From: Candidatus Danuiimicrobium aquiferis
GTDB lineage: Bacteria > Omnitrophota > Omnitrophia > Omnitrophales > Danuiimicrobiaceae
DNA length: 64,000 nt
Direction of reading: 5' to 3'
Assembly: GCA_001804285.1 (NCBI GenBank)
Contig: MHFR01000016.1
Span: 13,975-77,974, forward strand
Below are positions 9,001-64,000 of this stretch, piece after piece; positions within the stretch are counted from its first letter, which is position 1; each line of letters opens with the position of its first letter. Position numbers and translations under genes: made by a program. The notes below the pieces were generated by a model. The model had not been told where the DNA came from, did no database searches, and saw only the letters and a list, made by a program, of their open reading frames with translations.

Positions 9001-12000
9001 TTGAGATGGAGCCGGTTCAAGATTTGGATACGTCGGGTTTTGCAATCATTGAACAACCATTAATGGACCTTCGTGGATTTTGGGTTTTCAAAATACAACG
9101 TGCCGAAGTTCGCAACCTTGCAGACCAAAAAGGGGACAGGCATATGACTCCTGTTGAGCAATTGCCTGTCCCCTTTTTGGCTAATCAAGGCGAACGAGTG
9201 TCCTCGCAGCCTTTTGCGAGGGCCGAAGCGCGCGCGGAGAGTCAGCCATTTTTTGTCGAACGGAAGATGCCGTTCGTTGAGATGGTGCAAGCGCTGCCGG
9301 AACTCTCTGAAGAATTGAAAGCCCAATTTGATTATGCGCGTGCAATTTATTTTGGGGATAAAAATCGTGCGGCTGATTTATGGAAATCGCTGGCTGAACA
9401 TGGATATAAGCTCATCGGAGGGAAATGGTACGCCATGGTGTTTTCTGTCAAAATAACGCTGGCCGGGGCGAGTATTGAGCCACTTCAACCAGACAGCTTC
9501 TTCTCGCATCTTCAGGTGGTGTTGGGCCATGAACTCAAGCATCTGGATCCTGCTTTGGCCATGAAGCTGTATGAGCATCTCGGATACTTTTTTTCAAATA
9601 TGAAAGTTGATCCGAGAATTCTCCCGACGGTATTTGATCTGGATTTGAGCCGCGCCTACTATTCCGAAGGCACACTTCCGGACGGAAAAGTTTTAACGCA
9701 TGTTATATTCCCTAACACCATTAACAGAAGCGTGTCAACGTCCGATTATGTGAGCGAATTTTTCTTTGTGGATGGTGTGTTCTATGCGTATGGAGCCATG
9801 CATGACTTTTGGTCGAATGCTGAGTTGGAAGAAAGCTTTTCAGTGCTTGAAGCAGAAAATGGAAATGCGATTGGACGTGGCGTTCCTCACCTTGCCCGTG
9901 ATGTATATGAAGCGCGTCTCAAAACCATTTTGAAAATTCTGCCGGGCCGGGTGGTGCGAGTTCCGTCGGCACAATTCTCTCTGAAAGCAGACGGGCACAG
10001 CGCGCTTATTTTTTATCTCAAACTCGGGTTTCGCCCGCGGCCTTTGCCGGAGGATATTGACTTGAGAAGCAAAGTTGATGACTGGATGGCAAAGCTTGAT
10101 AGCGATCCAAAACTCCGTATTCCCGAGCGTGAAATCGAACGGTTTTTATTGCGCATGGGAGAAAAAAACCTGTATTACATTCCGCCGGAAATGTTGAGAA
10201 GGGCCGAAGCGCGCTTGAATTCGGTTAATTCAACCACTGCCCTATCGCAACTATTAAATAAAAAGGATTTATTGAATGAAGCGATAGGACTGTCATGGCT
10301 TCCGATAAATATGTTTTCACATAGTCAATGGAAAGCCATGGCTGCTTCGGGCGATGCATTGAGGCATCGCTCCGAGCTGCGAGCGGGGTTACCCGAATTG
10401 AATGGAGAAATTCCGGGCGAGTTTACGCCGAAACAAGTTGCGCGGAAAATCCGGCAATTTTCAAAACAAGCTTTTGAGGAGAAGGAGCGCGGTAAAAAGT
10501 TCAACCTTGTTTTGACACAAACGGAAGAACAGCTTCCGGAAGAAGTGACGGTGACGGCGAGAAATTTAGATGCGCGTATGAGACGAGTGAACCGATTTTT
10601 AGCAGGATTTCCGAAGGGATACAGGTTTAAACTTTACTTCGTCAACGCTCAAATTCCCGTATTGATAGTGTCTCAAGCTCAAGAAATTCCAGCTGGCGCT
10701 ATTGTCAAAGCAGACGTTTTAATGAATAAGTTAAAACATGCGAATGATGCACTCGTCAATATCATGATGACATTAAATCAAAGTAAAAATCTAGTGACGA
10801 AAGGAAATTTAACGCATCTTCGAAGGCAACTCGCAATTGTGAGACAAATATATGATGACCAAGAAGGAATGTTAAAAAAAGAATTTCAGAAAGCCTATGC
10901 AAATGCAGATAAAACTGACTTTTTGCTTATGTTTATGTTGGCTGGTGCGCTCAAAGCTGTGGCGCACATTGTCGATCAAGGAAGCCCGAAATTACCCCAA
11001 CCTGTGAATTTTACAAATTTGTTGCAGTCATTAATGCCCATGACGAAAGCATTCGATTATCCGATACAGGTTACGGATGACACCTCAATTTTAAATCGCT
11101 CCGAAGTACGACTTATGCAACCGATGATGGAAAATGCAGCTGAAATGAAAACCGCTCGACCGAGCGCGACTCAACCGAGCAGTGTGGAACAATTGGAAAA
11201 TGCGAGGGATTATTTGAATCCGGCTTTAAGTTCGAGCCGGGTGACGCGTTTCGCTAAATCGGGAATTGAAGCGCCAACAACATCTTCGACGGCTACAAGG
11301 CGTGTTTCAACAGAAATTAATCGTTCTTCGACCCCACCAAGACGCTCTTTAACTTCATCCATATCTGTACGAAGCGCACCCAAGCCTTCAGCAACAACCC
11401 GAAAATCACTTTTGAGATCTTCAACTAATACACCAACTTCACGTGCGGTAAAATCTGACGTCATGGCAATAACACCTTCTCTTTCTGCGGGAGACCGAAA
11501 TTTAGCAGACAAACCGGAAGTTGTCAATATAAATCAAGATCATAATAATATTGAGTTTAAATCAACGGTAGAGATTCCCACATTGCCTCGCAATGACGAA
11601 CGATTGATCTCTGATTCCTCAATTAACCAAGCTGCCGATCATGTGGCGCTTGCGATTGCGCCGGAATCGGTTTCGTTGAATCCGGGAGACGAAATCCAGC
11701 CGGCGGACGTTCAGCGGGAACTGGTGATATTAAAGGAAGTTGATGTTGATGTGTTCAGTGAAAAACTTCGCGCTGCAGTCATTAAAAAATTGAAAGAACT
11801 CAATCCACAGGTTGACGTTGAAATTGTTGATCCTGAAATCGTGAAACAGTTAACGGGAAACTGGATCGACTTACTCGCGGAAAAATTGAGCGGCAAATTA
11901 TCGATTGCATTTGAAATGAGCGGTCAGTTGACGGTGGATAAAATAGTTGAAGCGTTTCAAGCTGAAGGCTTTCGCGGACGGATCAAAAATTTGATTCTGA

Positions 12001-53164: not shown

Positions 53165-53238
53165 CGGGACGTGGCTCAGCCCGGTAGAGCACACCCTTGG
53201 GGTGGGTGGGGTCGAGAGTTCAAATCTCTCCGTCCCGA
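53165..53238 (+). tRNA. tRNA-Pro (anticodon GGG)
   Basis: Folded by hand. Acceptor cgggacg/cgtcccg, D-stem gctc/gagc, anticodon stem caccc/gggtg with loop ttGGGgt, T-arm gagag-ttcaaat-ctctc, discriminator A. CCA is not encoded. Confidence 0.85.
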
Positions 53239-53346: not shown

Positions 53347-54375
53347 ATGGCTCAAGCATTCCTCCACAAGCGCGGAAAAGTTTATTACGCCCGGTACAGA
53401 AACCGGAACGGAAAAGAGTGCTGGAAATCGTTTAAAACCAATTCCAAAGAAATCGCAAACGCAAAACTTGCCAAGCTCGTAGAAGCCCTCGAAAAAGATG
53501 AGCTCGGCTGGCTCAATCCAAAACCCATTTCAGAATACCTTCCCGAATATCTGGCGATCTGCGGTGCGGAACACTCCCCAAAAACACTCAGCAATGAAAA
53601 GAAAATCTTGGATGAGTTCCTCAAATTTTGCGGAGCCCAAACCTTAAATCAAATTACGGTGGATCGCGTTGAAGCGTTCAAAGTTAAACGCGTCCATAAA
53701 GTCAGCAAATCGACGGTGAACCGGGAAGTCTCGGTCATTAAAGCTTTTCTCAACCGCGCGGTGGCGCTTGGTTATCTCAACCGGCATCCGGCACAATTTG
53801 TGAAGAAATTCAAAGAAGATCAAAAACAGATTCAATTTCTTTCAGACGAAGAGATTAAGAAACTGCTTGCGGTTTGCTCTCCGAAAATGAAACAAATCGT
53901 GACGATCTTTTTGACCACCGGCATGCGCTTGGGCGAGCTGACACATCTGCGCTGGAAAGATGTCGATTTCCGCCATAAGCAGATCATCATTCAGAACCGG
54001 CCTGACTGGACGACAAAGAGCCATAAACCGCGTGTGATTCCCATGCATCCGGTAACCTTTGCGATATTGTCATCCTTACCCAAAGATTACGATTACGTCT
54101 TTCCGACAAGGGACGGCGCCACGATCGACAGTTACATCCGCCAGGAAATCGCCCGCTATGCCGATAAAGCCGGTGTCCACGCCAGCGTGAAAATGTTTCG
54201 ATCAACCTTTGCCAGCAATCTCGTCATGAGCGGCGTTGATATCTACGCCGTCTCCAAACTCCTCGGCCACCATGACGTAAAAATAACCGAAAAGCACTAT
54301 GCACACCTAACGCCAGACTTTTTAAGCCACTCCGTCCAGAGGTTAAGTTTTGAATTTGATAAGAAGAAGGGATAG
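53347..54375 (+). CDS. int: Tyrosine-type site-specific integrase
   Basis: C-terminal catalytic region ...FRSTFAS...LLGHHDVKITEKHYAHL (R..H..R..Y), N-terminal SAM-like domain, directly 3' of the tRNA. Confidence 0.9.
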   Translation: MAQAFLHKRGKVYYARYRNRNGKECWKSFKTNSKEIANAKLAKLVEALEKDELGWLNPKPISEYLPEYLAICGAEHSPKTLSNEKKILDEFLKFCGAQTLNQITVDRVEAFKVKRVHKVSKSTVNREVSVIKAFLNRAVALGYLNRHPAQFVKKFKEDQKQIQFLSDEEIKKLLAVCSPKMKQIVTIFLTTGMRLGELTHLRWKDVDFRHKQIIIQNRPDWTTKSHKPRVIPMHPVTFAILSSLPKDYDYVFPTRDGATIDSYIRQEIARYADKAGVHASVKMFRSTFASNLVMSGVDIYAVSKLLGHHDVKITEKHYAHLTPDFLSHSVQRLSFEFDKKKG

Positions 54376-54427: not shown

Positions 54428-55921
54428 ATGGCATTGCCGATTAATATCGATGAATTGTTGCACGGCCGCGTGGTTGAGACCGAGCGTCTTGAATTCAAGG
54501 AGGGATGGAATCCGCAAGCTGTCCTGCATACGATGTGCGCCTTTGCCAACGATATCAACAACTGGGGTGGCGGATATATCGTGATCGGAGTCGAGGAAAA
54601 TAAGACTGGGCCGGCCTTCTCACCTAAGGGGCTGGCGCCTTCCGAGATCAAAAAAATCCAAAAAAAACTTTTAAGCCTTTCTCACAGGATCAAACCGGAA
54701 TATTTTCCGATTGTTGACGTTACAAATTACAAGGGCAAGAACATCGTCATCATCTGGGTTCCCGGTGGAACGAACCGGCCATATAAAGCCGCGGAGACAT
54801 TAGGCAAGGGCGCGCCATACGCGTATTATATTCGCCGCAACGATACGACAAAACGCGCGACGGCGTCTGATGAGCGTAGTCTAATGAAACTCGCCAACGA
54901 CATTCCTTTTGACGACCGCGTTAATTACAAGGCAACTCTAAAAGATTTGGATATTCGGCGGATTGAACAATATCTAAGCGATGTAAAAAGCGATCTCGTC
55001 CGGGAAATGTCAAAGATGCCGCTTAAGGATCTATACCGCAGGATGAATATAGTTGAGGGACAGGATGAATTGTTGAGGCCAAAGAATATCGGACTTATGC
55101 TTTTTTGTATTGATCCCCAAAAGTATTTCCCGCGCACGACCATTGATGTCGTGAAATATAAAGACGATGTCGGCGACGACTTTGATGAAAAGATTTTCGC
55201 CGGGCCTATTCATGAACAGTTGCGCGCTGCGCTTCAATATATTAAAAATTTGATGATAATCGAATATGTTCATAAGGTTGAAGGCCGGGCAGAGGCGGAG
55301 AGATTCTTTAATTATCCGTACGCGGCTATCGAGGAATCTTTGGTGAATGCGGTATACCATCGTAGTTATGAGGAACGCGAGCCGATCGAAGTGCGGATTT
55401 ATCCGGACAAGATTTATATCATTAGTTATCCGGGGCCTTTACCGCCGCTGGGCAAAGATAATATTAATGAACCGATCGTCACGCCGCGCCGGTATCGCAA
55501 CAGCCGGTTAGGCGATTCTCTGAAAGAACTTGAATTGGCGGAAGGCCGGTGTACGGGATTTCCAAAAATCCGCCGCGCGCTTAAAAATAATGGATCGCCT
55601 CCGCCAAATTTTGAGACTGATGACGACCGCACATATTTTATGGTAACTCTTAAGATTAACCCAAGAGCGAAGAAAATGGCGGCAAAAATAACTCCTGAAA
55701 TGGCTGAGAAAAATGAGGGAATAAACGAGGGATTAAATGAGGGATTAAAATCTCTCTTGAAAGTAATTAAAGAAAATCCCGGCATCAAAGCAAAAGATGT
55801 CAGCTTGCGGCTTGACGGAAGGCCGATCAAAACGATAGAACGGCAAATAACGACTCTTATCGATAGCAAATTAATAGAACGAAGAGGAAGTCGCAAGACC
55901 GGCGGGTATTTCATTAAATAG
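54428..55921 (+). CDS. AlbA_2 (Schlafen-like) + HATPase_c_4-like + C-terminal wHTH regulator, of the family annotated as 'ATP-dependent DNA helicase RecG-related transcriptional regulator'
   Basis: LEFKEGWNP...AFANDINNWGGGYIVIGVEE N-terminal motif; NAVYHRSYEEREPIEVRIYPDKIYIISYPG core; winged helix at the C-terminus. Confidence 0.7.
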   Translation: MALPINIDELLHGRVVETERLEFKEGWNPQAVLHTMCAFANDINNWGGGYIVIGVEENKTGPAFSPKGLAPSEIKKIQKKLLSLSHRIKPEYFPIVDVTNYKGKNIVIIWVPGGTNRPYKAAETLGKGAPYAYYIRRNDTTKRATASDERSLMKLANDIPFDDRVNYKATLKDLDIRRIEQYLSDVKSDLVREMSKMPLKDLYRRMNIVEGQDELLRPKNIGLMLFCIDPQKYFPRTTIDVVKYKDDVGDDFDEKIFAGPIHEQLRAALQYIKNLMIIEYVHKVEGRAEAERFFNYPYAAIEESLVNAVYHRSYEEREPIEVRIYPDKIYIISYPGPLPPLGKDNINEPIVTPRRYRNSRLGDSLKELELAEGRCTGFPKIRRALKNNGSPPPNFETDDDRTYFMVTLKINPRAKKMAAKITPEMAEKNEGINEGLNEGLKSLLKVIKENPGIKAKDVSLRLDGRPIKTIERQITTLIDSKLIERRGSRKTGGYFIK

Positions 55922-56087: not shown

Positions 56088-58778
56088 ATGAGTGAAGAAA
56101 AGTGGAATGAATACAAAACGCGGAAGGAATATATCGATAAATTGCTCATTCATTCCGGCTGGAAACCCATCGTTGAATTCAAAGAAGGAAAAAATTACGT
56201 CCATGCTTCTGTAGAAGAATATCCTACGAAAACCGGTCCTTGCGACTATGCGCTCTTTTGCAAAAACCGGCCTCTGGCGGCTGTTGAGGGTAAAAAGGTT
56301 TCCGTTGGGCCGCAGAATGTACTTCAACAAGCCCAACGTTACGCGCGCGGATTTCAAGACAGCCCGTTTGCTTTTGGTGAATATCATCTGCCGTTTATTT
56401 ACTCGACCAATGGCAGAGTGGTCTGGTTTCAGGATTTGCGCCATCCGTTGAACCGGTCACGGGAAATCACTGCAATTCATACGCCTAATGCCTTGGAAGA
56501 ACTCCTATCAAGAGACGAAGAAAAAGCTAAGGCGTGGCTTCAAAGTACGTTAATCGACAATCGGTTCCTGCGCCCTTACCAAAAAGAAGCCATTTCAGCG
56601 ATCGAGCAGGCAATCATGGATCGAAAACGCAATATGCTTGTTGCGATGGCAACCGGAACCGGCAAGACCTTCACGATCATCAATTTGATTTACCGGCTGA
56701 TGAAATCCGGTCTTGCGAAGCGGATTTTGTTTTTGGTAGATCGCCGCGCTTTGGCAGCTCAAGCGGTGACAGAACTCGCAAGTTATGAAGCAGAGCCGGG
56801 CCTTAAATTTGATAAATGTTACGAAGTCTACAGCCAACGGTTCAGGCGCGAAGACCTGGATGAGAATATCAAATATGATTCTAAAGTCTTGCCCGAAGAA
56901 TACCTGACCGACCCAAAGAGCCGGGACAGTTTCGTCTACGTTTGTACCATCCAGAGAATGGGGATCAATTTATTCGGTAAGGACGGTATGTTCGGTCAAT
57001 CGACCGGCGATTTAGATGACGAATCAGATGCGGATCAGAAATTAGATATTCCCATTCATGCTTTTGATGTGGTGATCGCTGACGAATGCCACCGGGGATA
57101 TACTTCTCAGGAAGAAAGTAAATGGCGTGAAGTTTTGAAACATTTCGATGGCATCAGAATAGGACTGACCGCGACGCCCGCTGTCCACACCACCGCATTC
57201 TTTAAAGAAGTTGTTTTTCGGTATGAATATGAGCGCGCGGTCAAAGAAGGATTTCTTGTCGATTACGATGCAGTGGCGGTCAAATCCGATATTACGATTA
57301 ATGGAGTGTTTTTGAAAGAAGGCGAAGAAATCGGCCTTAGGAATACGACAACCGGCCAGCTTGTTTTTGATGTTCTCGAAGATGAACGGACGTTGGTGCC
57401 GCAAAGCAACGAAGCGGAATGGACAGCGCCGGATAGAAATAAAAAAGTTGTCAAAGAATTAAAAAAATATCTTCTCGCTCAAGAAGAATCTCTGGGGCAT
57501 TTCCCAAAAACGTTGATATTTGCTGACAACGATTTACCGCATACGTCTCATTCCGATCAGTTGGTCGACATTCTGCGGGATGAATTCAATCGGGGCGACG
57601 CCTTTGTTCAGAAGATAACCGGCAGTCCGACGGTTGACCGGCCTCTTCAGAAGATTCGGGAATTCCGAAACAGACAGAACCCCGGAATTGTCGTAACGGT
57701 TGACATGCTTTCAACCGGCGTGGACGTTCCCAAAATTGAAAATATTGTTTTTCTGCGGCCGGTTAAATCAAGAATCCTGTTCGAACAGATGATGGGGCGC
57801 GGAACACGCCTTTGCCCGGAAATTGGCAAGACGCATTTTACCGTTTTTGATTGTTTTGGCGGAACACTTTTGGAATTTTTCAGGCAAACAACCAGCATAA
57901 CCGCCGAAGCGCCGGCAAAGCCCACCAAAACGATTCGCGAAATAGTGCAGGCAATCGCCGACAATCAAAACAGGGCATACAATGTCAAAGTATTATCTAA
58001 AAGGCTTCAGCGCATCTCAAAAAATATTACCCAGGAAAGCAGGAATGAGCTTAATTATGTCGTTGGAGAGGATATTGCGGATTTTGCAATGAGTCTTGAG
58101 GAGAAACTTTCAAAGAATTGGGCCGGGACTATCAAGATTCTTCAGAGCGAAGCATTTCTTCAGTTGTGCGAAAACTACCATCGGCCCAAGCGCGAATTCA
58201 TTATCGCGGATTCTGCGGAAGACCAAGTCACGTCTGAAATGATTTTCAGGACAGCGGATGGCAAAGAGCTCAAGCCCGTTGATTATCTCAAGCTCTTTGA
58301 AGAGTTCGTCAGAAAGAATCCGGAACACATAGACGCAATCGATATCCTTCTCAATAAACCGCGTGATTTTCACACAGACGAACTCAAGGCGTTGCGAGAA
58401 AAATTGGCCACCAAGCCGGATGCTTTGATCGATAAATTCAACGAACGAAATCTGCGCAGGGCATATAATAGACAATTGGCTGATATAGTCTCGATGATCC
58501 GTCACGCTGCGAAGAACGAGGATTTATTGACGGTCGAAAGCCGTGTCGATCGCGCCATGAAAAAAATAAAAGCAAAAAGACATTTCACGGAAGCACAAGA
58601 AAAATGGCTTGAGCTGATCAGACATCATCTGGTTGCGAACTTGTTAATTGAAAAAGATGACATTGATATCCTGCCGATATTCACGCGGCAAGGCATGAAT
58701 TATTCAAATTTAAATCGGGTTTTTGACGGGAAACTGGACGAACTGTTAAAAGAGATAAATGAGGCGGTGTTAACATGA
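56088..58778 (+). CDS. hsdR: Type I restriction enzyme R subunit
   Basis: N-terminal HsdR_N (MSEEKWNEYKTRKEYIDKL), helicase motifs GTGKT and DECHRG; 896 aa. Confidence 0.9.
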   Translation: MSEEKWNEYKTRKEYIDKLLIHSGWKPIVEFKEGKNYVHASVEEYPTKTGPCDYALFCKNRPLAAVEGKKVSVGPQNVLQQAQRYARGFQDSPFAFGEYHLPFIYSTNGRVVWFQDLRHPLNRSREITAIHTPNALEELLSRDEEKAKAWLQSTLIDNRFLRPYQKEAISAIEQAIMDRKRNMLVAMATGTGKTFTIINLIYRLMKSGLAKRILFLVDRRALAAQAVTELASYEAEPGLKFDKCYEVYSQRFRREDLDENIKYDSKVLPEEYLTDPKSRDSFVYVCTIQRMGINLFGKDGMFGQSTGDLDDESDADQKLDIPIHAFDVVIADECHRGYTSQEESKWREVLKHFDGIRIGLTATPAVHTTAFFKEVVFRYEYERAVKEGFLVDYDAVAVKSDITINGVFLKEGEEIGLRNTTTGQLVFDVLEDERTLVPQSNEAEWTAPDRNKKVVKELKKYLLAQEESLGHFPKTLIFADNDLPHTSHSDQLVDILRDEFNRGDAFVQKITGSPTVDRPLQKIREFRNRQNPGIVVTVDMLSTGVDVPKIENIVFLRPVKSRILFEQMMGRGTRLCPEIGKTHFTVFDCFGGTLLEFFRQTTSITAEAPAKPTKTIREIVQAIADNQNRAYNVKVLSKRLQRISKNITQESRNELNYVVGEDIADFAMSLEEKLSKNWAGTIKILQSEAFLQLCENYHRPKREFIIADSAEDQVTSEMIFRTADGKELKPVDYLKLFEEFVRKNPEHIDAIDILLNKPRDFHTDELKALREKLATKPDALIDKFNERNLRRAYNRQLADIVSMIRHAAKNEDLLTVESRVDRAMKKIKAKRHFTEAQEKWLELIRHHLVANLLIEKDDIDILPIFTRQGMNYSNLNRVFDGKLDELLKEINEAVLT

Positions 58779-60190
58779 GTGATGTAGTCGGTAAACTGTG
58801 GGGATTTTGTCACACATTAAGGCATGACGGCGTTGATTATGGCGATTACATTGAACAACTGACCTATCTTCTTTTCCTCAAGATGGCGGATGAAAAAGGC
58901 GCCGATATTCCAAAAGAATATTCGTGGTCGGCATTGCGTGAGAAATCGGGAACCGAATTGACGGAATTTTATATCGATGCTTTGAGAGGCCTCGGAAAAC
59001 AAAAGGGAACGCTGGGCGATATTTATGCCGGAGCCATCTCAAAGTTTGCGAATCCGGTTAATCTCAAAAAGCTGATCAATCTTATCGATGAAACCGAATG
59101 GACAACTCTCAATGTAGATATCAAAGCGGCGGCTTATGAAGGACTGCTTGAGAAATCGGCGTCGGAAGGCAAAAAAGGAGCCGGTCAATATTTTACGCCG
59201 CGCATTCTGATTCAATCAATTGTGAAGTGCATGAAGCCGGATCCGCGAAAGGCAAAAGACTTTGTTATTCATGATCCTGCTGCCGGAACAGGCGGCTTTT
59301 TGGTTTGTGCTTATGAATGGCTGATGGGCGTGACAAAAGGAAGCCTTGAGCGCGACGATGCCAAGCGAATTACGAATAAAGTTTATACCGGCACTGAACT
59401 TGTCGCCCGTCCCCGGCGGCTTGCATTGATGAATTTGTATCTGCATGGCATTCATGCTGATATCTATCTTGGGGATTCGATCTACGAACCTCTGAAAAGT
59501 GCAAGATATGATTGCATACTCACCAATCCGCCTTTTGGAACGAAAGGCGCCAATCAAGCGCCGGAGCGTGGCGATTTCACGATTTCGACAAGCAATAAAC
59601 AGCTCAATTTCATTCAGCATGTCGTGAATGTTTTAAAACCCGGCGGCCGCGCCGCAATGGTTTTGCCGGATAACTGTCTCTTTGAAGACAAAGCGGGTGA
59701 AGTGCTGGAAATTTTGATGCAGGACTGCAATCTACACACGATTTTGCGTCTCCCACGCGGTACGTTTACGCCGTACAGCCAAGGCGTCAAAGCCAATGCG
59801 ATCTTTTTTCAAAAAGGCGCAGCTACCGAAAACGTTTGGATTTTTGATGCGCGCTCGAATGTCGAAGGCATTACCAAAAAAGACCGCCCGCTTTCCGAAA
59901 AACATTTTGAAGAATTTGTAAAGTGTTACGGCAATGAGCCGAACGGGCAAAGTAAGCGGACAGATTCAGGGCCCGAAGGCAGGTTTAAAAAATTCCATAT
60001 CAGCGAAATTAAAGAACGCAAGTACAAGCTCGACATTACATGGCTTAAAGACGATTCTCTTGAGGACAGTGACGAACTCCCCGAGCCGCAGGACTTAGCC
60101 AGTGAAGCCATCACCGAACTCGAAGCCGTGGTCGACAATCTCCGGGAAATTATCGATCTTGTGGAGAAAGAAGAGGGTATTGAGAAATGA
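58775..60190 (+). CDS. hsdM: Type I restriction-modification N6-adenine methyltransferase M subunit
   Basis: HsdM N-terminus, DPAAGTGGFL, LTNPPFG; ATGA overlap with hsdR. Confidence 0.93.
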   Translation: MSDVVGKLWGFCHTLRHDGVDYGDYIEQLTYLLFLKMADEKGADIPKEYSWSALREKSGTELTEFYIDALRGLGKQKGTLGDIYAGAISKFANPVNLKKLINLIDETEWTTLNVDIKAAAYEGLLEKSASEGKKGAGQYFTPRILIQSIVKCMKPDPRKAKDFVIHDPAAGTGGFLVCAYEWLMGVTKGSLERDDAKRITNKVYTGTELVARPRRLALMNLYLHGIHADIYLGDSIYEPLKSARYDCILTNPPFGTKGANQAPERGDFTISTSNKQLNFIQHVVNVLKPGGRAAMVLPDNCLFEDKAGEVLEILMQDCNLHTILRLPRGTFTPYSQGVKANAIFFQKGAATENVWIFDARSNVEGITKKDRPLSEKHFEEFVKCYGNEPNGQSKRTDSGPEGRFKKFHISEIKERKYKLDITWLKDDSLEDSDELPEPQDLASEAITELEAVVDNLREIIDLVEKEEGIEK

Positions 60191-61530
60191 ATGGCGAACT
60201 TCCGAAGGGGTGGGCATCTGCTCGAATTGGTGAGCTCTGTGATGTTCCGAAAGACAAAGGACATGAAGGCGTTGTGCCCTATTTAGAAATCGGAAATGTC
60301 GACATTAACTCAAAAGAATATACACTCACCGACAAACCTTCGGTAAAAGGGTGTCGAATCGCAAAGAAACATGACGTTTTGGTTTCGAGGGTTAGGCCAA
60401 CGCGTGGTGCAATAACTTGGATTCGCGAAGATGAGCTCGCAGTTTCATCCGCGTTTACTATGTTGCGTAACAGGGGTGCATTTACGGAAAAGTATCTTTG
60501 GCGATATCTCGCATGGAATCAAAACTATTTTGATCATTTAGGCGAGAACTGCACTGGTACGATGTATCCGACCACTTCGGATGATGCTATTATTGATTTT
60601 AAAGTTCCGATTGCTCCGCTTCCTGAACAACATCGACTTGTGGCGAAGCTCGAAGAAGTGCACAGCAAAGTCGAATCATCACAAAAGCGGATTGCGAAAA
60701 TTCCGGTTATTCTCAAACGCTTCCGTCAATCCGTCCTCGCCGCCGCCTGCTCCGGCCGCCTTACTTCTGATTGGCGAGAGAAGGATCCGATTGCTCAGAG
60801 AGAAGCCGATAGGGACGAGATTCCTTCTGGTTGGAAACCAATTTGTGTCGGTGATGTGGTTGAGAATCTTAAATACGGAACTGCGCAGAAGTGTGGGTAT
60901 GAAAAACAAGGGGTTCCTGTGTTAAGGATTCCTAACGTGGTCAACGGTTTAATCGACTGTTCTGATCTTAAATATGCCAAGCTTCCGTCCAAAGAAAGGG
61001 AACAACTCAAGCTGTATGATGGAGATATTCTTCTGATTCGTTCTAATGGAAGTGTATCATTGGTCGGGAGATGCGCGCTCGTTGAAGAAGAATACAGCGG
61101 TTTTGCCTATGCGGGTTATTTGATTCGCATTCGTCCGATTCGCGGACTTGTTGACCCCAAATTTCTGAACTTGGTTCTCGGAAGTTATGACATCCGTTTG
61201 CAAATCGAACTTGAAGCGCGTTCAACGAGTGGCGTGAATAATATCAACAGTGAAGAAGTGAGGGCTTTGCGGTTCTTACTGCCGCCATCAACCGAACAAC
61301 AAGAAATCGTCCGCCGAGTCGAATCATTATTCGCTCTGGCCGACCAAATCGAGGCCCGATTCCAAAAGGCCCAAGCGCAGGTCGACAAGCTCAGCCCGTC
61401 CATCCTCGCCAAAGCCTTCCGTGGTGAACTTGTCCCTCAAGATCCAAATGATGAACCCGCAAGCGTCTTATTACAAAAGATTAAAACAGTCAGAGAGAAA
61501 TCTGGAGGAAAACATGGCCGTACAAAATGA
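60187..61530 (+). CDS. hsdS: Type I restriction-modification specificity subunit (two target-recognition domains)
   Basis: Duplicated target-recognition-domain architecture with conserved coiled-coil ends (..LAKAFRGELVPQDPNDEPA..); ATGA overlap with hsdM. Confidence 0.88.
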   Translation: MNGELPKGWASARIGELCDVPKDKGHEGVVPYLEIGNVDINSKEYTLTDKPSVKGCRIAKKHDVLVSRVRPTRGAITWIREDELAVSSAFTMLRNRGAFTEKYLWRYLAWNQNYFDHLGENCTGTMYPTTSDDAIIDFKVPIAPLPEQHRLVAKLEEVHSKVESSQKRIAKIPVILKRFRQSVLAAACSGRLTSDWREKDPIAQREADRDEIPSGWKPICVGDVVENLKYGTAQKCGYEKQGVPVLRIPNVVNGLIDCSDLKYAKLPSKEREQLKLYDGDILLIRSNGSVSLVGRCALVEEEYSGFAYAGYLIRIRPIRGLVDPKFLNLVLGSYDIRLQIELEARSTSGVNNINSEEVRALRFLLPPSTEQQEIVRRVESLFALADQIEARFQKAQAQVDKLSPSILAKAFRGELVPQDPNDEPASVLLQKIKTVREKSGGKHGRTK

Positions 61531-62458
61531 AACAAGTCTCACGACATCTCAAACATCAGTTCAGACGGATGCGGGATTCACCTATAAATCAACTCGAATG
61601 TTTGAACCGATACCGCCATCGACCGTAGACCTCCTCTTTTTCAAAAAGTTATATTCCAGTTTGAAAGCATCTACGGACGAAATCGCTGACCACGATATTT
61701 CGAGATTGGTGCAACCGCCTGACCAGACCACCGAACAATTCAACAGCTTTAAGATTTACGCGAAGACTTTATACAAAGTGACAATTCACATCTATGGTTC
61801 GCGCGGGGAGTACATTTTCACTGAAAACCCAGGTATCTTTGATGACCCAAGTCTTCCAGATAGAATAAACCGGGTTATATTTGAGAACTCTACACGATTC
61901 AAAACCTTTGCACAGCGTGAGCCGGTGAATCAATTCCGAATTACATTTGATTTCACGACACCACCCATTTTTGATTTCAACATATCTCCCTCGCTGGCCA
62001 CCCCCGTGAACAGCTCTCTCGACATATTTGGTCAGAATGAAACTTGGGTATCTGGGACTTACAGGAAAGTGGTTGAACTGCTTGGGAATCGAAAGAATAA
62101 ACACGGTTGGCTTCATCGGAATAATGTTTGGGATTTATTCCTTTGGCTTGCCATCATGCCGATAATTTTTAGAATTTTATTTGTGCTCCAGAAATCAATA
62201 ACGCCGCATCTGCCGAACATTTCTGGGGTTTTGAAGGGCGCGATTTATGTTTATGCCTTTTTCCTTCTGCTGAACGCTTTCAGATTCATTTTTAGCTACG
62301 CGAGATGGGTTTTCCCATATCTTGAATTGGAAACGCCGCTAAAAAAGACGAATTTACATCGACTTATCCTTGGAACTATCGTCCTTTCAATCGTAGGGAC
62401 AATGGGTTATGAAGTGGTCATGTGGTGCATCAGAACACTGTGGGGGTTAGACGTTTAA
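61514..62458 (+). CDS. Unknown protein (314 aa): about 215-aa soluble N-terminal domain plus 3 C-terminal transmembrane helices; translationally coupled to hsdS
   Basis: ATG at 61514 with a GGAGG Shine-Dalgarno sequence 5 nt upstream; 17-nt overlap with hsdS; no recognisable family. Confidence 0.5.
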   Translation: MAVQNETSLTTSQTSVQTDAGFTYKSTRMFEPIPPSTVDLLFFKKLYSSLKASTDEIADHDISRLVQPPDQTTEQFNSFKIYAKTLYKVTIHIYGSRGEYIFTENPGIFDDPSLPDRINRVIFENSTRFKTFAQREPVNQFRITFDFTTPPIFDFNISPSLATPVNSSLDIFGQNETWVSGTYRKVVELLGNRKNKHGWLHRNNVWDLFLWLAIMPIIFRILFVLQKSITPHLPNISGVLKGAIYVYAFFLLLNAFRFIFSYARWVFPYLELETPLKKTNLHRLILGTIVLSIVGTMGYEVVMWCIRTLWGLDV

Positions 62459-63498
62459 TGAGCGCTAAATTTATTCAATACTTTAAGGATTTGCGAGTTG
62501 AATTTTGCCGCGAATCTGTAAACATCCTTCTGCTGTTTGGAATTATTGCTTCTCTAATCGGCACTATGCTTGGGTCATCGGACACCATTGAACACTTTGC
62601 TTTCTTACACCGGGTATTTGCACCGGAGGTTTATCGGATTGATGCAGGAATCAAGGAACTAACATTTTTCCCGCCAAACGGTAAACATGCCGCATTAAAT
62701 CAGACCGAAACCGGTTTTACTGAAATTCTCGAAATAATTCGACATAATGATCAAGGAGTTCCCCAAAAAATTGTCCAAATTACGAACCGCAAGGAATATC
62801 CCGCTATTTTTTATTGGTCTCACAAAGGTGACCAAAATGCGATATTGTTAGACTTGGTTGAACAAGCAGACGATCAAAGTGAAGTATATCCTGTTAATTA
62901 CACGACGGATGTTTTTCGATGGGTAAACCAAGAACGGATGAAGATACTTGTTTCGCGTGCTTTCATTTGGATTTTTGTAGGGATTTTGTTTGATTTCGTC
63001 GGATGCTTTTTTTGTTTTCGATTGAGACGAAATCGAACAGGAAAGAAAGTTCGGTCGGATGATTCGTCTCAATCAACGAGCAATCGAGGATGCGAATTAA
63101 ATCCGAATTATTGGAAAATTCCAATGGCGATTCTTTTTCTGCTTCTCGGCTATTGGATTATCTATTTCAATAGAAAAAGTCTGTTTTATTTTCCCGCCAA
63201 AGATTCATTTGACGATATGCCGCGCCTTTGGGGTTGTATTGCGGCGAGTTTTATCGGATTCGCTTTTCTCGCCTTTAAAAGTATTCCGAGCAAAAAGACA
63301 ACATTCCCGTGGACGTATTTATGGTATTACCCGGTTTTGTGCATTATTGGGGCGACATTGATCTTTGCAGTGTGTCAATTGTTTGAACGTTCAAACGGTT
63401 ATTTATTTTACTTCCTCGCTTTTCCATTATCATTCATTAGTGCGAATCTCACGGATTACTTTTGGACAGTAATCCTGCATCGGCTATTGAAAGAGTAG
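62458..63498 (+). CDS. Unknown polytopic membrane protein (346 aa, at least 6 transmembrane helices), TAATG-coupled to the preceding gene
   Basis: ATG overlaps the upstream stop codon; multiple hydrophobic helices; no recognisable family. Confidence 0.5.
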   Translation: MSAKFIQYFKDLRVEFCRESVNILLLFGIIASLIGTMLGSSDTIEHFAFLHRVFAPEVYRIDAGIKELTFFPPNGKHAALNQTETGFTEILEIIRHNDQGVPQKIVQITNRKEYPAIFYWSHKGDQNAILLDLVEQADDQSEVYPVNYTTDVFRWVNQERMKILVSRAFIWIFVGILFDFVGCFFCFRLRRNRTGKKVRSDDSSQSTSNRGCELNPNYWKIPMAILFLLLGYWIIYFNRKSLFYFPAKDSFDDMPRLWGCIAASFIGFAFLAFKSIPSKKTTFPWTYLWYYPVLCIIGATLIFAVCQLFERSNGYLFYFLAFPLSFISANLTDYFWTVILHRLLKE

Positions 63499-63662: not shown

Positions 63663-64000
63663 ATGACCGAACAAATTCATAATTCATGTGTTCATGATTT
63701 CGAACAGCTGCTTCAATATGTTGCTGAAAACAAGATTGCTCTGACGCCAAAGCAGAGTTTGATTCCTTTGCGGCATATTAAGACGGTTATGCAGCGGTTT
63801 CAGATTCAAGAATCTCACGAGCATTGCATTGGTGATAGGGCTTACAAGACGCGGGATGAAATGGAGTATCCCCGTTTTTATTTTCTGGATCTTTTGGCCA
63901 TAGGGGGAAGACTTCTCAAAATTACCGGTAAGAATTTGCTTGCTAAAGGGCCGAATTGGGAAACTTTTTTTGCCGCGGAACAGAGGGAGAGAGGCTTCCT
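63663..64000 (+). CDS. Partial ORF (3'-truncated by the window end), unknown
   Basis: ATG at 63663 and an open frame to the end of the window (MTEQIHNSCVHDFEQLLQYVAENKIALTPKQ...). Confidence 0.3.
   Translation, partial: MTEQIHNSCVHDFEQLLQYVAENKIALTPKQSLIPLRHIKTVMQRFQIQESHEHCIGDRAYKTRDEMEYPRFYFLDLLAIGGRLLKITGKNLLAKGPNWETFFAAEQRERGF

Follow-up and report, generated by a model that had tools for sequence, protein, structure and literature searches.

Two unrelated membrane-protein genes as candidate defence cargo at the 3′ end of a type I restriction-modification operon in an Omnitrophota bacterium

We analysed a 64,000-nucleotide (nt) stretch of contig MHFR01000016.1 (assembly GCA_001804285.1, positions 13,975 to 77,974 of the forward strand), hereafter the window. 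It derives from a groundwater metagenome-assembled genome (MAG), Omnitrophica bacterium RIFCSPLOWO2_12_FULL_44_17, which is Candidatus Danuiimicrobium aquiferis (Omnitrophota). A type I restriction-modification (R-M) operon, hsdRMS, is followed there by two genes, X and Y, whose products are membrane proteins. Both are real genes. We regard X and Y as two unrelated, independently mobile candidate defence genes carried as cargo at the 3′ end of the type I operon of a tRNA-Pro island, a reading to which we assign roughly even chances as a whole. Its genomic part is well supported, whereas the putative defence function is unproven.

X and Y form the tail of an hsdRMS operon

The genes of the operon and its tail, all on the forward strand, are as follows.

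56088..58778, + strand: hsdR, 896 amino acids (aa); ResIII, Helicase_C and EcoEI_R_C (Pfam), REase_I at 1e-92 (PADLOC)
58775..60190, + strand: hsdM, 471 aa; N6_Mtase at 1e-61 and HsdM_N, MTase_I at 1e-169 (PADLOC)
60187..61530, + strand: hsdS, 447 aa; Methylase_S in two stretches, Specificity_I at 3e-87 (PADLOC)
61395..61530, + strand: 3′ tail of hsdS (..LSPSILAKAFRGELVPQDPNDEPA..), which moves together with the cargo genes and holds GGAGG at 61504-61508 and the start codon of X
61514..62458, + strand: gene X, 314 aa (list of open reading frames (ORFs), sequence, hydropathy, public gene calls)
62458..63498, + strand: gene Y, 346 aa (ORF list, sequence, hydropathy, public gene calls)

The features that define a type I system are all present: an HsdR helicase-nuclease, an HsdM N6-adenine methylase and an HsdS with two target recognition domains, encoded in one operon. 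An earlier, sequence-only reading of this DNA had described the order hsdR-ATGA-hsdM-ATGA-hsdS, with X starting 17 nt inside hsdS behind a GGAGG and Y entered through TAATG. ORF coordinates and sequence bear out both parts of this description, as do the Pfam and PADLOC matches for the operon. The hsdR/hsdM and hsdM/hsdS junctions each overlap by 4 nt (ATGA). The ATG of X at 61514 is preceded by GGAGGAAAAC; five bases separate it from GGAGG, and the hsdS stop comes 17 nt further on. The ATG of Y at 62458 has one base in common with the X stop codon (TAATG). In six public assemblies of the window island, independent gene callers give identical 314-aa and 346-aa products (X, OGW81016.1, A3G33_01415; Y, A3G33_01420).

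The sequence-only reading had also considered that a terminator might precede the X start, but no terminator-like hairpin was found between hsdS, X and Y. A scan for sigma-70-type promoters gave no excess over the shuffled expectation. Because there is no terminator-like site and no intergenic gap, and because the genes overlap the upstream ORF, we take X and Y to be expressed as the tail of the hsdRMS message.

The hsdS tail recurs ahead of X and Y homologues

Tblastn with the window HsdS recovered remnants of its C-terminal tail (motif ..AFRGELVPQD.NDEPA..) upstream of X in loci L008 (1.7e-8) and L009 (3e-5), and upstream of a Y homologue in L015 (1.3e-4). In L008 the remnant forms an ORF of 56 aa that lies between AbiEii and X and overlaps X through GGAGGAAA-ATG, just as hsdS does in the window, and blastn similarity between the window and L008 is unbroken from 61395, within hsdS, to the end of X. 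The L009 remnant contains an in-frame stop. The L015 remnant lies at the very start of its contig, 26 nt ahead of the Y homologue and with no X between them.

Given these remnants, and a Y homologue that trails another type I system (see below), the slot just after hsdS is a recurrent cargo site that can hold X, Y or both. In L008 and L009, X is intact and under selection although the adjacent hsdS has decayed, which speaks against X being an obligate partner of the HsdS next to it; the cargo lasts longer than the hsdS gene with which it arrived. The 56-aa tail ORF of L008 (1778-1948) begins with an ATG of its own that overlaps the stop of AbiEii, and its frame is open up to the X start; this suggests that it has been kept as a leader for the translational coupling of X, in the order AbiEii, tail ORF, X.

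X and Y occur apart from each other

We read 17 X loci and five Y-type loci; tblastn over all examined loci brought up no second copy of either gene. Apart from the window island and its identical copies in other samples, X and Y occurred together in no locus. The idea of the sequence-only reading that the two genes form a pair fails on this count, as neither gene accompanies the other in the rest of the roughly 17 X loci and five Y-type loci.

Six loci make up a close, Omnitrophota-like clade of X. The genes upstream of X in each are given here.

Window: the hsdRMS type I system
L005: an unrelated hsdM-S-R operon and a DUF2971-like gene
L008: AbiEi/AbiEii
L009: Dcm, two unknown genes, Vsr and a MazG-like gene
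L002: an unknown gene and DUF4145, with Fic downstream
L010: a HARE-HTH/PDDEXK protein

In all six, defence or mobile-element genes thus stand directly upstream of X on the same strand. In four of them X starts within a few bases of the end of the upstream ORF (gaps of -17, -11, -14 and +9 nt), each time behind a Shine-Dalgarno-like GGAGG, GGAG or GAGG. Tight coupling is therefore a property of X wherever it lands rather than one specific to HsdS. An alphaproteobacterial clade of X is solitary and has mixed neighbours: a type ISP enzyme with ParE, an AAA ATPase with PIN, the edge of a mobile element, or metabolic genes. L036 adjoins a mobile element. Comparison of upstream and downstream ORFs across all loci revealed no conserved small partner of X, the only common elements being the hsdS tail and a split N-terminus in Bradyrhizobium.

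An hsdS gene or type I operon precedes Y in each of the three close Y-type loci (window, L012 and L015). In L012 the Y homologue lies three genes after an unrelated hsdM-S-R operon on an integrative and conjugative element (ICE). The type I systems of L005 and L012 belong to other families than that of the window (21-26% identity, different gene order), so that a specific protein-protein fit to one HsdS is unlikely. The L012 contig (1-21281; Y homologue P0012) carries an ICE-borne defence island that runs from a UvrD-like helicase through ThsB_TIR and 8xMP to hsdM-S-R; the latter is followed by a YgjP-like peptidase, a Dev_Cell_Death-domain protein, a 197-aa unknown protein and the Y homologue, after which come a TPR protein and type IV secretion system genes (TrbC, TraC-like, CagX).

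The functional tie to restriction proposed by the sequence-only reading survives in part. The link to type I systems does recur, in the tail remnants of L008, L009 and L015 and in the operons of L005 and L012, but X also stands behind AbiE, Dcm-Vsr-MazG, DUF4145 or HARE-HTH/PDDEXK, or beside ParE, PIN or metabolic genes. Homologues found widely without R-M neighbours had been named by that reading as evidence to the contrary, and this applies in part: X is often found without R-M genes.

X carries a soluble domain and three transmembrane helices

By hydropathy, X consists of a 206-aa soluble N-terminal part (aa 1-206, 61514-62131), which has no signal sequence, followed by three transmembrane (TM) helices: TM1 at aa 207-225 (62132-62188), TM2 at aa 240-260 (62231-62293) and TM3 at aa 284-304 (62363-62425). 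This agrees well with the earlier estimate of about 215 soluble residues and three TM helices. The soluble domain is predicted to be alpha/beta and, by the positive-inside rule, cytosolic. The most strongly conserved motif is FSYARWVFPYLE in the cytosolic TM2-TM3 loop (62291-62326), which takes the form FSYARWVFPxxE in the family alignments.

Structure prediction and remote homology searches had been proposed on the basis of the sequence. An AlphaFold2 (AF2) model of X with 32 relatives was confident (predicted local distance difference test (pLDDT) 81.9, predicted template modelling score 0.73) and shows an alpha/beta sandwich followed by three long helices, with the conserved loop motif on a short strand adjoining the soluble domain. 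A Foldseek search with this model found nothing at E ≤ 1e-3 in the PDB or among viral models. That neither protein has a recognisable motif was likewise upheld: X, Y and their family members, searched as single sequences and with every alignment member, had no recurrent match in Pfam, NCBIfam, PHROGs or PADLOC, and PDB sequence profiles gave no match for X or Y. A comparison with the X profile showed no similarity to HEC-07, an Hma-embedded candidate defence protein for which an N-terminal sensor domain resembling AdoMetDC has been proposed. Across both X clades D146, T163 and S167 are invariant and H201, D207, R264, E271 and R283 nearly so; these conserved polar residues, placed at the membrane face and in the loop that precedes the last strand, could form a catalytic or ligand site.

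X is under purifying selection. Its homologues are 57-75% identical across different genomic settings, with dN (nonsynonymous divergence) of 0.09-0.40 against saturated dS (synonymous divergence) and an omega of 0.055-0.13 where computable. The family is small: 32 clusters among 5.8 billion, and seven loci in 185,579 species genomes (six alphaproteobacterial, one in a Terriglobia MAG). No relative turned up among 50,697 phage records and 72,556 plasmids, and none in IMG/VR viral contigs at the sensitivity of pattern scans. On this count X and Y do not class with the superinfection-exclusion proteins that phages, prophages or plasmids encode; L012 is ICE-borne and L036 lies by a mobile element.

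In Bradyrhizobium (L016-L019, 162-455 and 452-1111) the X homologue is split into ORFs of 97 aa and 219 aa that overlap by 4 nt, which could reflect a fixed frameshift, a pseudogene or recoding; the 219-aa protein is on record for 89 contigs. X itself (P0153/OGW81016.1, 61514-62455) was missed by the first homology search, because the representative of its 90% cluster (P0031) is a fragment of 133 aa. Fragments that represent clusters can thus hide full-length proteins.

The modular make-up of Y

Y has five strong TM helices by hydropathy (aa 21-39, 169-187, 219-237, 258-276 and 291-309). Only a low-confidence AF2 model adds a sixth, at about 316-345, by its secondary structure; with it, Y fits the earlier description of a polytopic protein with at least six TM helices. 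The N module (aa 1-195, 62458-63042) comprises TM1, a loop domain of about 130 aa that is probably extracytoplasmic, and TM2. It is followed by a basic linker and the C module (aa 213-346, 63094-63495), a 4-TM bundle.

Each module has relatives of its own. The N module also occurs as stand-alone proteins of 180-210 aa (exhaustive profile search and alignment). The C module is 63% identical to a stand-alone 140-aa 4-TM protein (P0047), and residues 200-346 of Y match the alignment of this 140-aa family over the full length of the profile (hhalign probability 99.9%, E 2.5e-32). The 140-aa family counts about 100 representative clusters and has no Pfam model. Y is therefore a fusion, in which a 2-TM module with its loop domain is joined to a 4-TM module. 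Over its full length, Y has two relatives. Diverse alignments lacked the conserved stretches needed to scan for Y, and a narrower scan returned only three metagenome loci. The ORF after the distant N module in L035 was tested as a C module and rejected.

The island around the operon

Outside the operon and its tail, the window has these features.

53165..53238, + strand: tRNA-Pro(GGG) (ARAGORN; Rfam tRNA, 61.8 bits)
53347..54375, + strand: tyrosine integrase (Pfam Phage_integrase, 7e-26)
54428..55921, + strand: SLFN_AlbA_2/HATPase_c_4 protein (Pfam), a common neighbour in defence islands
63663..64000, + strand: start of a 250-aa ORF that runs past the window end; the full gene is in L027 at 11206-11958

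The tRNA-Pro(GGG) gene followed by the tyrosine integrase gene marks the left end of the island, and the tRNA is its probable integration site. Within 6 kb 3′ of Y, the search for an attR copy of the tRNA-Pro 3′ end gave chance-level matches only, as did a search for repeats flanking X and Y as cassette borders. The right border of the island may lie between the 250-aa ORF and a GHL10 gene (L027 11041-17375). The 250-aa ORF, perhaps part of the island, matches nothing in Pfam, NCBIfam or PHROGs and is without relatives in the other examined loci.

The SLFN_AlbA_2/HATPase_c_4 gene comes first in both X-bearing type I islands (the window and L005, 521-1942; 27% identity) and also matches the N-terminal regions of PADLOC models associated with prokaryotic Argonautes (pAgo). 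In L029 (1802-6321; ERZ28563641), a public assembly of the window island, this gene and hsdR are each called in two pieces. Either the strain is a variant in which restriction is inactivated, or the assembly is wrong.

Discussion

Under the cargo reading, X and Y would each be a stand-alone accessory defence gene of the sensor-plus-membrane-effector type. The cytosolic alpha/beta domain of X would sense a cue of infection and probably dock on the invariant TM2-TM3 loop; sensing might then open or disorder the 3-TM bundle, depolarise the cell and cause abortive infection. Y, with its conserved domain facing outward, may work at the envelope, where it could, for instance, block entry or signal envelope damage to the 4-TM module. 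Coupling to hsdS, the gene of the least abundant subunit, could keep a potentially toxic membrane protein low and let its level track the expression of restriction. The rarity and patchy distribution of both families support the cargo reading.

Several observations weigh against it. Four of the alphaproteobacterial X loci (about half) have metabolic neighbours only, and distant relatives of the Y N module (L034, L035) are without hsd neighbours among the genes scanned. The window, L008, L009 and L015 may share one ancestral hsdS-cargo junction and would then not be independent counts. A search of PADLOC-DB v2.0.0 (5027 models, candidate systems among them; E ≤ 0.1) assigned neither X nor Y to any family, and the AF2 model of Y, built from three sequences, has a pLDDT of 45, too poor for a fold search.

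X and Y might instead be passengers unrelated to defence, with an envelope or other physiological role, which ride on mobile islands and came to follow hsdS by chance. The metabolic neighbourhoods just mentioned would fit such genes, as would the missing PADLOC matches and the membership of the Y C module in a fairly broad stand-alone 4-TM family. We nevertheless consider this somewhat unlikely: close-clade X is placed behind same-strand defence or mobile-element genes in six of six loci and is tail-coupled in four, all three close Y-type loci lie behind an hsdS gene or type I operon, and an extremely patchy distribution is what accessory conflict genes typically show, rather than housekeeping ones. 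A guard of the Ronin or PrrC type, in which X and/or Y are membrane death effectors silenced by HsdM/HsdS and released once a phage anti-restriction protein of the Ocr/ArdA type binds the enzyme, would supply a complete R-M system with an anti-anti-restriction back-up of its own. It has a precedent in RonA, a TM effector tightly linked to hsdS-hsdM. The position of X and Y directly 3′ of and coupled to hsdS speaks for it too, together with the hsdS tail kept ahead of X or Y homologues in three other loci and the two further homologues (X in L005, Y in L012) that trail unrelated type I operons. Those operons, however, are of different families, and X persists intact under purifying selection beside hsdS remnants that are 56 aa long or contain a stop. 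X also lies behind AbiE, Dcm/Vsr, DUF4145 or toxin-antitoxin genes or among metabolic genes, while ronA homologues are always linked to hsdS/hsdM. On balance, we judge a guard of this kind improbable.

That X and Y form a toxin-immunity or addiction pair stabilising the island, or a two-component abortive-infection effector pair, was suggested by their one-base overlap and by both being membrane proteins. The lack of co-occurrence has largely refuted this: all loci other than the window island and its copies have one gene alone, and the Y homologue of L015 comes straight after the hsdS tail. Little credence is left for such a pair. We think it just as doubtful that X or Y anchors the restriction complex in the membrane or determines where it localises. 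An association of type I enzymes with the inner membrane has been reported, and the gene is co-translated with HsdS, but a dedicated anchor should co-vary with its partner, whereas X has no R-M neighbour in most loci and adjoins three unrelated type I families.

A bolder variant has a complete, restriction-competent type I system carrying its own membrane-acting suicide or exclusion modules, silenced by the HsdS/HsdM core or by translational coupling, and firing when a phage disables restriction. We hold this to be quite improbable. If true, it would extend the Ronin decoy principle to new and much larger effector families, in a candidate phylum without experimental phage biology. Related to this variant is the possibility that the conserved 3′ tail of hsdS acts as an anchor for recombination and translation, by which such effectors could be exchanged among operons.

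Returning to the cargo reading, X and Y are reasonable candidates, of which uncharacterised defence-island families supply thousands; they do not amount to a demonstrated new system. Should X or Y prove anti-phage, one or two membrane-effector families whose architectures are modelled by no library would join the defence catalogue. The reading, if true, would also provide a concrete case of cargo that has no promoter and spreads by attaching itself to the final gene of other defence operons, with the hsdS tail as landing pad. It is the recurrent hsdS-tail junction and this promoter-less tailing behaviour that are worth following.

Comparison with known systems

The architecture of X recalls abortive-infection effectors that combine a soluble sensing domain with a few TM helices and reside in defence islands, such as those of CBASS and Pycsar, the TM effectors of type III CRISPR systems, and SLATT-type proteins. 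These effectors answer a signal from a partner enzyme encoded beside them; X, in contrast, stands alone and has no match to SLATT or related Pfam models.

The closest comparison by position is Ronin. The sequence-only reading had held that the known genes embedded in R-M systems (PrrC, RloC, Abi) encode cytosolic nucleases or kinases and not membrane pairs, a view outdated by RonA, a 61-aa TM cell-death effector with a tight link to hsdS-hsdM (Silas et al., bioRxiv 10.1101/2023.04.06.535777). On its own RonA is lethal; HsdMS silences it, Ocr, ArdA or Aop1 trigger it, and its homologues are always linked to hsdS/hsdM (bioRxiv 10.1101/2023.04.06.535777). X and Y resemble it as membrane-protein genes tightly linked to type I hsdS/hsdM, by the 17-nt overlap of X with hsdS and the TAATG of Y, and RonA, like X and Y in their putative role, is proposed to kill or arrest the cell by membrane damage. 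Three Ronin traits are nevertheless lacking in X and Y. Ronin has no hsdR, its HsdMS being a decoy, whereas the window operon has an intact 896-aa hsdR; X often occurs without any R-M gene, unlike ronA; and RonA, compared here by description only, is a 61-aa protein with one TM helix and no soluble domain, against 314 aa for X and 346 aa for Y.

PrrC and RloC are also accessory genes among hsd genes and act as back-up abortive infection when restriction is blocked (bioRxiv 10.1101/2023.04.06.535777; bioRxiv 10.1101/2024.01.29.577857). They are cytosolic ATPase-nucleases, usually encoded between hsd genes, whereas the membrane proteins X and Y are encoded at the 3′ end and show no ATPase or nuclease signature in Pfam, NCBIfam or PADLOC.

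Embedded defence cassettes are known from type I R-M, BREX and Hma systems (‘guilt by embedding’; Payne et al., bioRxiv 10.1101/2024.01.29.577857), and TgvAB is embedded in the type I operon of Vibrio VPI-2 (PMC11411939). Like the candidate defence genes X and Y, these cassettes are independent units within the operon of a host system, and the same cassette appears in different host systems. They sit between the host genes, however, and encode mostly nucleases, ATPases or GmrSD-like enzymes, while X and Y encode membrane proteins and come behind the final gene of the operon. Both families are unannotated, and their tail-coupled arrangement is best described as a variant of an already known organisation. 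The tailing pattern extends ‘guilt by embedding’ to ‘guilt by tailing’, which is open to systematic mining.

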